From Escherichia phage vB_EcoM_CE1: a stretch of DNA of 64,000 nucleotides. The position numbers and the translations under genes are program-made. The DNA lies in sequence record ON229909.1; one strand, written 5' to 3'. Positions 1 through 56,049 of this stretch are shown in pieces. Position 1 is the stretch's first letter. Each line of letters begins with the position of its first letter. The notes under the pieces were generated by a model. The model searched no databases. It was not told the DNA's origin and worked only from the letters and a program-made list of their open reading frames with translations.

Positions 1-2643
<2,643 letters not shown>

Positions 2644-17210: not shown

Positions 17211-17747
17211 TTATTGCCTCTCATATACGTAGCTTCTCAATTTATTAGCCCAACGACTCCAATTTCCAACTATAGTTTTTGTGTAATTTTTAACAAGGGT
17301 TTTTCTTATTGGAGCTGGAGGATCGGTTGGTTCAGTAGTATCAGAAGATGACCTAGAATTACTGCCAGAACCTCCAGATTCACTTTGTTCTTGGTAGTCA
17401 TATATTAATGTTACTTCGTAAGTGAATGTCTTCTGGAGGTTTTGAGGAGCTTTCCATAGATATAACTGAGTATTAGAATCAGTTGGAAGGTCTTCCCATG
17501 AAGCAGCAGTTTTAAATTCATCATCTAAACGATATTTCAATGCATCATTTCCAAATCCAAATACAGATTCATACGTTCCATATAAATGATTTTCTTCTAC
17601 TAAAACCCCAGGAGTTTCTTCGTAACTAGTTATATTTATAGATACTAACGTTTCACCTGTTTCTAATTGAGCGGTAAAGGTGACGTCGATAGAAGAACCT
17701 TCCATGGATTCTCCTAAATCAGCGCTCATTGGAAGTATATTAGCCAA
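17211..17747 (-). CDS. hypothetical protein (T4 5.1-like position)
   Basis: 178 aa ORF between the GIY-YIG gene and 5.4; Ser/Gly-rich linker. Confidence 0.6.
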
Positions 17748-18606
17748 TTGTTGAATTCTCTAATGATGTAAATTTATAATCACATTTTTTCAAAGCTTTT
17801 AAAATTGCGTTATAACTTACATCCGGAAGGTCATGTTCAATTGCTTTTTCTCTAAACCATTTGTATTTCTGCGGATGCGGTTTTCCCAAATCCTCCCAAA
17901 GTTTTTTGACTTTTTCTATACTAATCCAAGGTTCAACTGATCTTAGTTTTTTATTTCTAGCATCTAATCTCGATTTTCTTATCAAAGGATCATTCCATGA
18001 TTGTTTCGTTCCTTCTATTTTTCCTGGATGATTGATTAATTTATTTCTGTATTCATCGGATTTCCATAAAGATTTAACAGTATTAGAAATACGAATTTTT
18101 AATGTTGGGTCATTTTCAAAAGCAGTTTTCATCGCATTACTCATTTTCTTTCGATATTCTGATGATGCGCATCTTTCTTTGTTTATTTTAGATATTTTCT
18201 CTGAAAATTCTTTAGTTGACGTTGATTTAGCTAATGCCTTCAATTGAGCTTTCCTATATTCAGGATTAGACCACATTCTCTTCAAATCTTCGGATGAAAA
18301 ACCATCACCGCCGGATTTTATATTGGTGCATAGAATGTCAGATGATTTATATTTCGAAATCCAATACCTTTCTCTTAAATTAAGAATTTCATAAGTAGAA
18401 ACAAATTCAATTATTTCAAAATCTATTTTATAACCAGGTTTATTGCGTATCTTTTTAATATAATCACCGGAACCTATATACTTGTCATTTTCTAAATCAA
18501 AATATCTAGATTCATGTTTACCAATATAAACACGTACTAATCCTTTCGGATTAGTAACGGTTGTTTTATATATGTATCTAAATTGAACAGTGTTAGATTT
18601 TTTCAT
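17740..18606 (-). CDS. GIY-YIG homing endonuclease (Seg-like) with NUMOD-like repeats
   Basis: N-terminal FRYIYKTT...YIGKH...YIGSG GIY-YIG motif; repeated S..EYR..L helices; SD gaggtg; own late promoter. Confidence 0.75.
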   Translation of the reverse strand: MKKSNTVQFRYIYKTTVTNPKGLVRVYIGKHESRYFDLENDKYIGSGDYIKKIRNKPGYKIDFEIIEFVSTYEILNLRERYWISKYKSSDILCTNIKSGGDGFSSEDLKRMWSNPEYRKAQLKALAKSTSTKEFSEKISKINKERCASSEYRKKMSNAMKTAFENDPTLKIRISNTVKSLWKSDEYRNKLINHPGKIEGTKQSWNDPLIRKSRLDARNKKLRSVEPWISIEKVKKLWEDLGKPHPQKYKWFREKAIEHDLPDVSYNAILKALKKCDYKFTSLENSTIG

Positions 18607-27004: not shown

Positions 27005-27670
27005 ATGTTCCATTACATTTATAAAATAACAAATAAAATTAATAATAAAATTTATATTGGTGTGCATTCTACCGAAAATTTAGATGATGGATATATGGGT
27101 TCTGGTAAATTATTAAAAAGAGCCCAAGATAAGTATGGTATAGAAAATTTTTCTAAAGAAATATTAGAGTTCTTTGACGATAAAACCTCTATGTTTGAGA
27201 CAGAAAAGAATATTGTGACTGAAGAGTTTTTAAAGCGCCCTGATGTTTATAATTTGAAATTAGGTGGTGAAGGTGGATGGGACCATTTAAACACTAAAGA
27301 ATATTTGGATAAAAAGAAAGAAGCTTCCTTAAAAGGAGCTGCCGCTTTTAAAACCAGATTTGAGAACGACCCAGACCTTAAAGAAAAATATCGTAAAATG
27401 GGTTCAGAAAGGTTTAAACAGCTTTGGGATAATCCTAAGTATAGAGAGAAATTTTTAAATACTAAATCTTTCTTGGGTAAGACCCATACTCCTGAAACTA
27501 TTAATAAAATGAAAGAATCTCACGCCAGAAATAAACACCAACAAAGTGAAAAGAATTCCCAATTTGGCATGATGTGGATTCATTCATTAGATGAAAAAGT
27601 TTCTAAACGTATTAAGAAAACTGACCCAATTCCAGAAGGATGGTTTAAAGGTCGAAAAATGAAATTTTAA
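27005..27670 (+). CDS. segB: GIY-YIG homing endonuclease SegB inside tRNA cluster
   Basis: 221 aa, FHYIYKITN...YIGVHS GIY-YIG motif; located between tRNA-Ile and tRNA-Arg as in T4. Confidence 0.85.
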   Translation: MFHYIYKITNKINNKIYIGVHSTENLDDGYMGSGKLLKRAQDKYGIENFSKEILEFFDDKTSMFETEKNIVTEEFLKRPDVYNLKLGGEGGWDHLNTKEYLDKKKEASLKGAAAFKTRFENDPDLKEKYRKMGSERFKQLWDNPKYREKFLNTKSFLGKTHTPETINKMKESHARNKHQQSEKNSQFGMMWIHSLDEKVSKRIKKTDPIPEGWFKGRKMKF

Positions 27671-51900: not shown

Positions 51901-52434
51901 CAATTGAAAAAGAAATTGAAGGATTAATTCATAAAACTAATAAAGACCTTTTAAACGAGAATGCTAATAAAGATTCTCGTGTTTTTCCAACTCAACGGGA
52001 CCTTATGGCTGGTATTGTGTCTAAACACATTGCCAAAAATATGGTTCCGTCTTTTATTATGAAAGCGCATGAAAGCGGAATTATTCACGTGCACGATATT
52101 GATTATTCCCCTGCTCTTCCATTTACTAATTGCTGTTTAGTAGATTTAAAAGGAATGCTTGAGAACGGATTTAAGCTCGGTAATGCGCAGATTGAAACTC
52201 CTAAATCAATTGGCGTTGCTACTGCAATTATGGCACAAATTACCGCACAGGTTGCTTCACACCAGTACGGCGGAACGACTTTTGCGAATGTAGATAAAGT
52301 ACTTTCTCCTTATGTTAAACGTACCTACGCAAAACACATTGAGGATGCAGAAAAATGGCAAATCGCAGATGCATTGAATTATGCCCAATCTAAAACAGAA
52401 AAAGACGTATACGATGCATTCCAGGCGTATGAGT
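51897..52434 (+). CDS. nrdD: anaerobic ribonucleotide reductase, exon 1
   Basis: Matches T4 NrdD N-terminus; exon ends at U 52434; join with 53480..54759 gives 605 aa, the T4 NrdD length. Confidence 0.8.
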
Positions 52435-52645
52435 TAATTTAATTCAGGCTCATGTAAAACCGGTCTAAACGGGGAACCTCTCTAGTAGACAATCCCGTGC
52501 TAAATGTTCTTTTGAACTAAATGCCTAACGACTAACCGTGATGAATGTAGCGGTGTAGAATAGAAGCTAATGCTATTCGAAACGGCCGGCATCGAAAGAT
52601 GAAGATATAGTCTAATCTGCATGGCGACATGCAGCAGTCATCTTG

Positions 52646-52653
52646 TATAAATA
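52646..52653 (+). promoter_or_regulatory. T4-type late promoter TATAAATA for intron ORF
   Basis: Exact TATAAATA 30 nt upstream of I-TevII ATG. Confidence 0.6.
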
Positions 52654-52682
52654 AGATTATCTTATGAATACGAGATGAAACA

Positions 52683-53453
52683 ATGAAATGGATAAAAAGA
52701 CGTTGTACTAAAATAAAAGATAAAGACGCATTTACATACTTAGTTAAGTTTTCTAATGGCGACATTTATATCGGTTATAAAAAATTTAGAACAATTAAAA
52801 ACAAGCCCACAAACTGGAAAACTTACACAACGTCATCTAAGTATATAAATGAACGCTTAAAAACTGATACACCTACTAAATGGATAATTTTAAAAACATT
52901 TGATAGTTATAAAGATGCATTAAAACATGAAGAAGAGGTCATACGTAAATATTTTTATAGCAAAAAATGTTTAAATAAATCCATAGGCGGTAAAAAGTTT
53001 TATAAGCATCCGGATACTGAAGAACATATTCAAAAATTAAGAGATGCTCATAAGGGTAAAGTGTTATCCGAATCTCATAAAAACAATATAAAATCTTCTG
53101 TAGCTGAATATTATGCTAAAAACGGAAGATCTAAGGAACATGTGCAAAATAATATCAATAGTCGAAAAAGTAAAAAACAAGTATCGATAAAGCTTAAAAA
53201 TAAAACTTTTAGAAGTTTTAAAAAAGCAGCGGAATATTTAAATTGCACTGAAAGTGAAGTCGAAACTCATCCTCTTGTTTTGAGTATTAAGACTACTATT
53301 CATAAAGTTCCTGAATATGTGGTTGTTGACGGTATTAAGTATACGTCTTATATAGAAGCAGCTAAAGCGCTAAATTTTCATCCTAGCACTATAAAAGAAC
53401 GTTGCATATCTATGGACTATCCAAATTTTGTTGTTTCATATAAACGGGCATGA
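52683..53453 (+). CDS. I-TevII: intron-encoded GIY-YIG homing endonuclease I-TevII
   Basis: 256 aa, GIY-YIG motif DIYIGYKK, inside nrdD intron. Confidence 0.85.
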   Translation: MKWIKRRCTKIKDKDAFTYLVKFSNGDIYIGYKKFRTIKNKPTNWKTYTTSSKYINERLKTDTPTKWIILKTFDSYKDALKHEEEVIRKYFYSKKCLNKSIGGKKFYKHPDTEEHIQKLRDAHKGKVLSESHKNNIKSSVAEYYAKNGRSKEHVQNNINSRKSKKQVSIKLKNKTFRSFKKAAEYLNCTESEVETHPLVLSIKTTIHKVPEYVVVDGIKYTSYIEAAKALNFHPSTIKERCISMDYPNFVVSYKRA

Positions 53454-53479
53454 ATTTGCGACTCATGCTGAATATAATG

Positions 53480-54759
53480 ATGAAGTAAATACACTTTTCA
53501 GCTCTAATGGACAAACGCCTTTTGTAACAATTACGTTTGGCACGGGAACTGACTGGACTGAACGAATGATTCAGAAAGCAATTCTGAAAAATCGCATTAA
53601 AGGTCTTGGCCGTGATGGGATAACTCCTATTTTCCCTAAGCTTGTTATGTTCGTTGAAGAGGGTGTTAATCTTTATAAAGACGATCCGAACTATGATATT
53701 AAGCAGCTTGCTTTAGAGTGCGCAAGCAAAAGGATGTATCCTGATATTATTTCAGCCAAGAACAATAAAGCTATCACAGGTTCATCTATTCCTGTTTCTC
53801 CAATGGGTTGCCGCAGTTTCTTAAGTGTATGGAAAGATTCGACTGGTAATGAAATTCTTGATGGACGTAATAATCTTGGCGTTGTAACACTGAATCTTCC
53901 TCGTATTGCGTTAGATTCTTATATTGGAACACAGTTCAATGAACAGAAATTTGCCGAATTGTTCAATGAACGAATGGATTTGTGTTTTGAAGCTTTGATG
54001 TGTAGAATTAGTTCCTTAAAAGGAGTTAAAGCGACTGTTGCTCCTATTCTTTACCAAGAAGGTGCATTCGGGGTTCGTCTTAAACCTGATGATGACATAA
54101 TTGAGTTATTTAAAAATGGTAGAAGTTCAGTGTCCCTAGGATACATCGGTATTCACGAATTGAATATTCTTGTCGGTCGTGATATTGGACAGGAAATTTT
54201 AACTAAAATGAATGCACATCTTAAGCAGTGGACTGAAAGAACTGGTTTTGCTTTTAGCTTGTATTCTACACCTGCTGAAAACTTGTGTTATCGCTTCTGT
54301 AAACTCGATACCGAAAAATATGGAAGTGTAAAGGATGTTACTGATAAAGGCTGGTACACTAACAGTTTCCACGTTTCAGTAGAAGAAAATATTACTCCGT
54401 TTGAAAAGATTTCTCGCGAAGCACCATATCATTTCATTGCGACAGGTGGTCACATTTCTTATGTTGAACTTCCTGATATGAAAAATAACCTAAAAGGTCT
54501 TGAGGCTGTATGGGATTATGCTGCACAACATTTAGATTATTTTGGTGTTAATATGCCAGTAGATAAATGTTTTACATGTGGAAGTACCCATGAAATGACT
54601 CCTACTGAAAACGGATTTGTTTGTTCTATTTGTGGAGAAACTGATCCTAAAAAGATGAACACAATAAGAAGAACATGCGGATATCTTGGAACTCCTAGCG
54701 TTGTTCCATGGAATTTAGGTAAAATGAAAGAAATGGTAAAACGAGTAAAACATGCATAG
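53480..54759 (+). CDS. nrdD: anaerobic ribonucleotide reductase, exon 2
   Basis: Continues NrdD frame to stop at 54757-54759. Confidence 0.8.
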
Positions 54760-55582
54760 GTATTATATAATTTATAAAATAACAAATATAATTAATTCAA
54801 AGGAATATATCGGTGCGCATAGCACCGATAACATAAATGACGGTTATATGGGGTCAGGAACATTGATTCGTGCCGCTTTATTAAAATATGGTAGAAAAAA
54901 TTTTAATAAAGAAATTTTACATGTTTTTGATAATGAAAAACAAATGTATGATAAAGAAGCTGAACTTGTAACCGAAGAGTATTGTCTAAAAGAAAATACA
55001 TATAATATTAAACCTGGTGGAAAAGGTGGAACTGCCTATGAACAGACACTTGAACATCGCCGCAAAAATAGTTTAGCAAATAAAGGTAAAAAGAGAACAG
55101 AAGAAACTAAAATAGCTATTTCACGTGCTTTAAAGAAATATAAACGTACGCCAGAGCATCAAGCAAATTTAAATAAAGCCGTAAGCATAGCTATGAAGCG
55201 AAAAGATGTTAGAAGTAAATTAGCTGGAGAGCGGTCTGAGAAAGATAAATTATCTATATCAAACGGTGTTAAAAAATATTACAATTCTTTGAGTGAAGAA
55301 GAACGCGAACTTCATCGCAAGCGAATTATTGAAGGTAAAAAGAATTCTCCCATGTCATTGGAATCTAGACAAAAGCTTTCAAAAGCTTTAAAAGGACTTC
55401 AAGTTGGTTCAAAAAATCCAATGTATGGAAAAATTTCTCCAACTAGCAAAACCGTTTCAGTTGACGGTATTAAATATGATTCAATTAAAAAGTGCTCAAA
55501 TGCCATAAAAGTTTCTAGACATCTTATACTAAAACGCTGTAATTCTACTGATGAAGCTTGGAAAAATTGGATATTATTATGA
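54752..55582 (+). CDS. GIY-YIG homing endonuclease, SegB paralog
   Basis: N-terminus YYIIYKITN..YIGAHS..GYMGSG closely parallels segB in this window; start overlaps nrdD end, stop overlaps nrdG start. Confidence 0.75.
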   Translation: MHRYYIIYKITNIINSKEYIGAHSTDNINDGYMGSGTLIRAALLKYGRKNFNKEILHVFDNEKQMYDKEAELVTEEYCLKENTYNIKPGGKGGTAYEQTLEHRRKNSLANKGKKRTEETKIAISRALKKYKRTPEHQANLNKAVSIAMKRKDVRSKLAGERSEKDKLSISNGVKKYYNSLSEEERELHRKRIIEGKKNSPMSLESRQKLSKALKGLQVGSKNPMYGKISPTSKTVSVDGIKYDSIKKCSNAIKVSRHLILKRCNSTDEAWKNWILL

Positions 55583-56049
55583 ATTATGACAGAATATACC
55601 CGTGCTGCTTTGTAAATGGCCCTGGATGCAGGGTCGTTCTTTTCGTTACGGGGTGTTTGCATAAATGTGAAGGGTGTTATAATAAATCAACATGGAATGC
55701 TAGAAATGGCGTTCCATTCACTGGTGAAACACTAGAACAATTAATTGAATGTTTGAATAATGATTATATAGAAGGATTAACTATAACTGGAGGAGACCCT
55801 CTTTATCCTGATAACCGAGATGATGTTCATTGCATTGTTCAAACGGTAAAAAATCTTTATCCGAATAAAAGCATTTGGTTGTGGACAGGATATAAGTTTG
55901 AAGATATTAAACAACTAGAAATGCTTAAATATGTTGATGTTATTATTGATGGGAAGTATGAGAAAAATCTTCCGACCAAAAAGCTGTGGCGAGGTTCAGA
56001 TAATCAGCGACTTTGGTCAAATACCGATGGGGTGTGGAAACATGATTAA
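55579..56049 (+). CDS. nrdG: anaerobic ribonucleotide reductase activating protein (radical SAM)
   Basis: ORF track 55558..56049 (TTG); ATG at 55579 gives 156 aa; CxxxCxxC motif. Confidence 0.85.
   Translation: MNYDRIYPCCFVNGPGCRVVLFVTGCLHKCEGCYNKSTWNARNGVPFTGETLEQLIECLNNDYIEGLTITGGDPLYPDNRDDVHCIVQTVKNLYPNKSIWLWTGYKFEDIKQLEMLKYVDVIIDGKYEKNLPTKKLWRGSDNQRLWSNTDGVWKHD

Follow-up and report, generated by a model that had tools for sequence, protein, structure and literature searches.

segH, a free-standing homing endonuclease gene in the nrdD–nrdG junction of Escherichia phage vB_EcoM_CE1, and the recoded nrdD end linked to it

SegH is a homing endonuclease of T4-related phages that was reportedly named by Sandegren, Nord and Sjöberg in a 2005 article in NAR (33:6203), the title of which is said to state that segH 'replaces' mobC. 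What kind of gene this is and where it lies is already known from the publication of 2005 and from the annotation of many genomes. Its closest characterised relative, as far as the catalytic domain is concerned, is SegB, a demonstrated site-specific endonuclease of the GIY-YIG type that homes, and homing by Seg endonucleases is accompanied by marker exclusion (PMC2330249). The other described systems with which the locus can be compared are I-TevI, which is encoded in the td intron of T4, and T4 mobC, a gene of 633 nt that belongs to the HNH family.

The gene treated here was found in the window, a stretch of 64,000 nucleotides from Escherichia phage vB_EcoM_CE1 (record ON229909.1). The features on which the analysis is based are the following.

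52683..53453, + strand: intron-encoded endonuclease ORF of 256 aa, an I-TevII homologue (BLASTP against T4 I-TevII)
53480..54759, + strand: nrdD exon 2, large subunit of the anaerobic ribonucleotide reductase (alignment to the intron-less nrdD of PD112; annotation of related records)
54675..54759, + strand: last 29 codons of nrdD, a recoded 3' end linked to segH (codon table against IME537 and T4)
54752..55582, + strand: segH coding sequence, free-standing homing endonuclease gene, 276 aa plus stop (ORF scan, sequence comparisons)
54752..55030, + strand: aa 1-93, predicted N-terminal catalytic domain of the GIY-YIG type, SegB/SegE subfamily (SegB identity, invariant residues, AF2, Foldseek, hhalign)
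55049..55435, + strand: about aa 100-228, predicted helical linker with NUMOD3 repeats (Pfam, AF2)
55349..55435, + strand: aa 200-228, best NUMOD3 stretch (Pfam)
55427..55570, + strand: aa 226-273, predicted C-terminal DNA-binding domain, I-TevI helix-turn-helix-like (Pfam below cut-off, Foldseek, TIGR01453)
55579..56049, + strand: nrdG, reductase activase (ORF, sequence)

A first, sequence-only reading had proposed that an ORF of 276 aa fills the junction of nrdD and nrdG, with its ATG overlapping the end of nrdD and its stop codon overlapping the nrdG start. The ORF was recovered at 54752..55582 by the ORF scan, and both overlaps can be seen in the raw sequence. The 3' end of nrdD reads ...AAA CAT GCA TAG, with its last nucleotide at 54759, and the overlap between this stop and the segH ATG at 54752 is 8 nt long (ATGCATAG); there is no intergenic space before segH, since nrdD overlaps its start. 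At the other side segH terminates in TTA TTA TGA at 55582 and the nrdG ATG lies at 55579, giving an ATGA overlap. An upstream TTG at 55558, proposed by the ORF scanner as an alternative nrdG start, was set aside, because the conserved MNYDRIYPC begins at 55579, as it does in RB3, IME537 and T4.

The encoded protein is identical to SegH of phage RB3 (ABI48949.1) at 276 of 276 positions, and the DNA is 99.9% identical to that of RB3, the record of which (AY262138) has nrdD, segH and nrdG annotated with overlaps of 8 nt and 4 nt, as in the window. A megablast search with the ORF retrieved 72 phage records, of the genus Tequatrovirus and all from T4-like phages of enterobacteria, with an identity of at least 99% in 54 of them; several of the matching records carry the annotation segH or SegH. 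At the protein level, the ORF matches PHROG 314 ('homing endonuclease', E = 2.4e-60) and, in a protein database search, an identical cluster (E = 1.4e-174). With such an identical cluster, and 99-100% identical DNA in 54 phage records, the observation of the ORF is far above chance. The database search yielded only four full-length relatives, at 100%, 91% (SegH of Salmonella phage KM16), 48% and 47% identity. The remaining matches are of partial length, and those that were included in an alignment of 41 sequences have the N-terminal domain in common with SegH; according to the homologue search, many of the partial-length relatives carry PF01541 or PF19835. [quoted passage not shown]

The likeness to SegB that had been noticed in the N-terminal part is borne out by BLASTP, in which SegH residues 4-102 and residues 2-100 of the SegB encoded in the window (segB at 27005..27670) share 52% identity over 99 aa (E = 2e-33). 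NUMOD3 is the sole Pfam family of which SegH passes the threshold (E = 3.1e-8; score 33.8 bits, cut-off 20.4), and it does so in two stretches, so that the suggested NUMOD-like repeats are indeed recognised. With the single protein as query, the Pfam family GIY-YIG (PF01541) gave no match at E <= 1. Three further profiles scored under their cut-offs: SegE_GIY-YIG (PF19835) with 18.6 bits against 25, I-TevI_DNA-bd (PF20987) with E = 3e-4 and 21.1 bits against 27, and TIGR01453 ('group I intron endonuclease') with 50.2 bits against 56.05. The alignment to the last of these runs from end to end, with SegH residues 7-274 placed on positions 4-211 of the 215 in the profile.

A search of the PDB with the single SegH sequence gave no meaningful match. 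[quoted passage not shown] The AlphaFold (AF2) model has a mean pLDDT of 84, with values of 95-98 over residues 1-93, strands at 4-12 and 18-25 that form the hairpin carrying the GIY and YIG tyrosines, and helices that run from residue 100 to 213. [quoted passage not shown] As modelled, the build of SegH is that of I-TevI, with a GIY-YIG catalytic domain, a helical linker with NUMOD3 and a C-terminal helix-turn-helix domain.

The sequence-only reading would have been contradicted by a loss of catalytic residues, and in this respect the outcome is largely favourable. In the 41-sequence alignment Y8, Y19, G21, E69 and N85 are invariant and E71 is nearly so. The motifs IIY (Y8) and YIG (Y19, G21) align to Y6, Y17 and G19 of I-TevI, and N85, in the pair YN, aligns to N90. 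E69 and E71 are located in a helix that is aligned to the helix of I-TevI E75, with a register that is off by 1-3 residues in the HMM and hhalign alignments. The GIY tyrosine, the YIG tyrosine and glycine, the asparagine and a conserved glutamate are thus present, and only the equivalent of Arg27 could not be placed: the stretch around I-TevI R27 falls in an alignment insertion relative to SegH, both with the family profile and with hhalign. In the SegH model a conserved loop of residues 26-36 (D30, Y32, G34, S35, G36) takes the place of the helix that bears Arg27 in I-TevI, and R40 of SegH is a lysine in most relatives in the alignment.

The distribution of the gene was established by a comparison of the nrdD–nrdG junction across relatives, as the first reading had advised, and segH, mobC, insert-free and recombinant states were all encountered. 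The adjacent nrdD segment is common to about 815 records, and segH occurs sporadically among these close relatives, in 72 records, with a T4-type mobC in 32. In many relatives, among them IME537, the junction has no insert, and an ATGA joins the two genes, the stop of nrdD overlapping the start of nrdG. T4 was said to have no such gene at this site; this is correct insofar as segH is absent from T4, and the identical gene in T4, which would have refuted the first reading, was thus not encountered, but the junction is not empty there, since the T4 reference carries mobC. A homology of segH to mobC was considered and rejected, the two genes being of different families and without sequence similarity; an alignment of the two stretches is about 50% identical with many gaps.

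Three phages that possess segH, namely that of the window, RB3 and Lv5cm, were used for comparing the divergence of the cassette with that of its surroundings. Among them, mismatches amount to 0-1 per 100 nt in the tract 54580..55604 and to 2-10 per 100 nt in the flanks, which means that the segH cassette (about 54580..55604) is nearly identical across backbones with flanks that differ by some 5%. Because the divergence of the tract is far below that of the flanks, the cassette must be much younger than the backbones in which it resides, and a young cassette of this kind is the pattern that homing with co-conversion produces, so that the comparison supports such a process. Other stages are found as well. 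PD112 has an internally deleted segH that lacks window positions 54891..55467, and in SHFML-11 and BCPShso_001 a segH-type nrdD tail is followed by the ancestral 15 nt GTTAAACACCAATGA and then by mobC. In these two chimeras the crossover between the segH-type tail and mobC is located exactly at the 9-mer ATGCATAGG.

A striking difference between phages with and without segH concerns the 3' end of nrdD. Compared to insert-free IME537 and to T4, the last 29 nrdD codons of the window contain 11 synonymous and 12 non-synonymous differences, and the preceding 21 codons only one difference. Identity to IME537, which is 94-100% through nrdD exon 2, falls to 52% in the last 65 nt or so of the gene; in nrdG it is 86% over the first 60 nt or so and 100% thereafter. 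Within the first 30 nt or so of nrdG, a comparison of the window, RB3, IME537 and T4 revealed segH-linked substitutions, including D10C. The recoding of nrdD starts within the codons of the glycyl-radical motif RRTCGYLG, and the first changes, in T, C, G and L, are synonymous, affecting four of the six codons for T-C-G-Y-L-G. The recoded block of 88 nt is present in 80 records only, and among 2419 NrdD-bearing records the segH-type tail was not found as the native allele of another lineage, which would have pointed to flanking DNA from a donor.

The beginning of segH also appears to have its origin in nrdD. The start of segH, ATG CAT AGG (M-H-R), is this same 9-mer, which also encodes M-H-R in the nrdD of phages without segH, at a distance of 15 nt from the stop codon, and distant SegH homologues begin with MFYTIYKITN, without H-R. 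This suggests that the segH start was captured from nrdD, and the start of the distant homologues fits such an event. The two full-length homologues with 47-48% identity, which are from metagenomic T4-like contigs, directly follow nrdD, with nrdG 2-3 kb away; they lie in intergenic space, where a 13-bp hairpin precedes them and covers their GAGGG ribosome-binding site. Since these homologues adjoin nrdD and the nrdD tail is recoded, the recognition region of the SegH lineage is probably the conserved 3' end of nrdD. That the recoding begins in the glycyl-radical codons would imply that SegH recognises this conserved coding stretch, and we infer that the recoded tail is a version of the target region that SegH does not cut. 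The tail could instead be flanking DNA that was inherited from a donor lineage. Taken together, the recoded nrdD end, the captured start and the crossover at the 9-mer might indicate that segH travels as a self-contained 'cut-proof' module, a tentative proposal that we consider rather doubtful at present. If true, it would explain how a free-standing endonuclease gene could enter an intergenic space of zero length with neither neighbour damaged.

An alignment to PD112, the nrdD of which has no intron, places an interruption of the nrdD gene of the window at about 52435..53478. In permissive mode, Rfam detected a group I intron (RF00028, 70.6 bits) at 52399..52634, and at gathering thresholds it found no intron in nrdD. 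The ORF in this intron is 56% identical to T4 I-TevII at the amino acid level (BLASTP) and is a diverged allele. The locus thus carries two homing endonuclease genes, as had been claimed, but the description of the intron ORF as I-TevII holds only in the sense of such a diverged allele. The distance of 1.3 kb given for the two genes is accurate, the intron ORF ending at 53453, which is 1299 nt upstream of the segH ATG. Alleles of the intron ORF are of the window type in 45 records and of the T4 type in 25, and the records in which segH is accompanied by an nrdD intron endonuclease number about 15. Since RB3 has segH without the intron, the two elements assort independently. In Lv5cm a third endonuclease gene is present, between gene 49 and nrdD.

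With respect to expression, no T4 late-promoter consensus TATAAATA was detected in or just before segH, the nearest one being at 52646, before the intron ORF, and no sigma-70-like site was found upstream of the gene. The start codon is preceded only by a weak GAG, at a distance of about 8 nt. The T4 genes segC, segF, mobA and mobC are in the same situation, and for these a review of T4 mentions the proposal of low-level re-initiation by terminating ribosomes. A perfect 9-bp hairpin is present inside segH at 54808..54830; a regulatory element was considered, but the hairpin is conserved neither in segB nor in the distant SegH homologues.

These observations can be combined in a scheme in which segH would be transcribed on the nrdD message and translated at a low level, by re-initiation when ribosomes terminate nrdD synthesis 5 nt past the segH ATG. 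In a cell that is co-infected by a relative without segH, the enzyme would bind by means of its C-terminal domain and linker and would cleave both DNA strands of the nrdD gene of that relative, at its 3' end or close by. Repair of the cut genome from a genome that carries segH would transfer the gene with flanking sequence, some 100-180 nt on the nrdD side and about 30 nt on the nrdG side, to the recipient. The carrier itself would escape cleavage through the recoding of its nrdD 3' end from the glycyl-radical codons onward. That this gene is segH, one of the free-standing homing endonuclease genes of T4-like phages, can be stated with high confidence, and it probably acts broadly along these lines.

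It is very improbable that segH has become a fixed passenger that is no longer mobile, i.e. an inactive or decaying gene that is retained for supplying the nrdD stop and the start of nrdG translation. Both ends of the ORF overlap neighbours that look essential, which constrains clean deletion, and the decayed copy in PD112 and the unplaced Arg27 equivalent would also be compatible with such a fate. However, the ORF of the window is intact and its product is identical to the RB3 protein that is named a homing endonuclease in the literature, the conserved tyrosines, glutamate and asparagine of the family are all in place, and the low divergence of the cassette relative to its flanks points to recent spread instead of ancient residence. 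Least credible of all is that segH mainly benefits the phage, by exclusion of competitors in mixed infections or by stimulating recombination or amplification in the vicinity of the nrd genes: the marker exclusion that goes with Seg homing (PMC2330249) and the promotion by SegB of segmental amplification of anti-defence genes, as recently reported (PMC13096335), would fit this, but the window has no sign of amplification or of defence-related cargo beside segH, where the neighbours are nrdD and nrdG, and such a role would add to homing and not replace it.

As a discovery, the gene is of little weight, and the use of the present case is that of a check, in which a free-standing homing endonuclease was recognised from raw sequence with its family and architecture correctly given. 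The points that are possibly undocumented concern only the anatomy of the cassette, with its recoded glycyl-radical codons, its apparently captured start and the crossover at the 9-mer. Nevertheless, a recoded tail, a young cassette, a decayed copy and segH/mobC chimeras at one locus illustrate the life cycle of a homing endonuclease gene, and the comparative details could guide an experiment on the cleavage site.

Among the known systems, the segH genes of RB3, LZ2 and T6 (AY262138, AY262139 and AY262137) are the same as that of the window in being inserted between nrdD and nrdG and in having the same recoded nrdD tail, with a 100% identical protein in RB3. The latter phage differs from that of the window not in the segH gene itself but in its nrdD coding sequence, which is uninterrupted (1505 nt). 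With mobC of T4, segH has in common that it occupies the same junction, likewise without a promoter and overlapping its neighbours, and that its first codons are apparently borrowed from the host gene; mobC opens with 17 nt that repeat the beginning of nrdG. SegB and SegH share the signature YIG.HST.N..DGYMGSG and both have NUMOD3 in the C-terminal half, but these halves are unrelated in sequence, SegB ending in W(I/V)..G..KGRK and SegH in an I-TevI-like helix-turn-helix. Their insertion sites and targets are also different, being tRNA genes for T4 SegB and the nrdD/nrdG junction for SegH. I-TevI is only about 23-29% identical to SegH and is specified by an intron, whereas segH stands free between genes, and a zinc finger of the I-TevI type is not evident in SegH, which has three scattered cysteines only (C78, C248 and C263). 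Even so, the two enzymes have the same order of three parts, in which a catalytic domain is followed by an extended linker and a helix-turn-helix DNA-binding domain.

Natural chimeras involving segH and mobC, the two endonuclease genes found at the nrdD/nrdG junction, and a decaying copy of segH can be seen in related phages:

SHFML-11 and BCPShso_001, 1860..1915 of each record: natural chimeras of a segH-type tail and mobC
PD112, 1889..2197: segH remnant with an internal deletion, by sequence match to the window

In the two chimeras, a recoded segH-type nrdD tail that runs to ATGCATAGG is followed by a remnant of the ancestral nrdD tail, GTTAAACACCAATGA, and then by mobC, with the crossover located exactly within a 9-mer that is common to the segH start and to segH-free nrdD. 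The PD112 remnant is a decaying gene copy. Its match to the window breaks off after 54890 and starts again at 55468, so that some 577 nt have been lost, and the deletion point is a short AAATATG repeat.

Further endonuclease genes and a group I intron match were found in the window and in Lv5cm:

Window 52399..52634, plus strand: group I intron match (Rfam RF00028, 70.6 bits)
Window 52683..53453, plus strand: intron-encoded endonuclease ORF in nrdD, I-TevII homologue
Salmonella phage Lv5cm, 998..1819: third endonuclease gene at the locus, lying between gene 49 and nrdD
Window 17740..18606, minus strand: 288-aa ORF with a GIY-YIG-like N-terminus (FRYIYK...VYIGKH...GSG)

The RF00028 match exceeds the gathering score of 50 but was given by the permissive search mode of Rfam only, the default gathering mode yielding no match in this interval. 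The intron endonuclease shares only 56% protein identity with T4 I-TevII, and this diverged window-type allele occurs in 45 phage records, as compared to 25 with the T4-type. The additional gene of Lv5cm, present on top of the intron ORF and segH, has an annotation that notes similarity to SegG, the 24.6 kDa protein from the gene 32-59 region of T4. The 288-aa ORF adjoins a gene-5-like baseplate lysozyme ORF. It probably represents a free-standing endonuclease gene of the segC type, and it resembles the N-terminus of SegH weakly (E = 0.005).

Carriage of segH is linked to a difference in nrdG, and inverted repeats occur in segH and at its distant homologues:

Window 55606..55608: nrdG codon 10, Cys in the window and RB3, Asp in IME537 and T4
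Window 54808..54830, plus strand: perfect 9-bp inverted repeat inside segH, TATCGGTGC GCATA GCACCGATA
Metagenomic T4-like contigs L008 (3948..4000) and L011 (363..416): 13-bp hairpin at the ribosome-binding site of SegH homologues

NrdG residue 10 is Cys in the segH carriers (window and RB3; PCCFVNGPGC) and Asp in IME537 and T4. This position adjoins N-terminal Cys residues of the activase.

The segH repeat spans the YIGAHSTD codons, and its 141-nt context has a folding z of −2.4; among the sequences compared, it is conserved neither in segB nor in the distant homologues. The homologues in L008 and L011 (47–48% identical) are intergenic, directly 3' of nrdD, and their GAGGG ribosome-binding site lies under the hairpin (about −23 to −25 kcal/mol), an arrangement that resembles what has been described for the control of translation in T4 intron endonucleases.

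T4, record position ~43538: mobC start, opening with ATGAATTATGACAGAAT

This opening copies the first 17 nt of nrdG (MNYDRI), so a host gene appears to have supplied the start of mobC, like that of segH.
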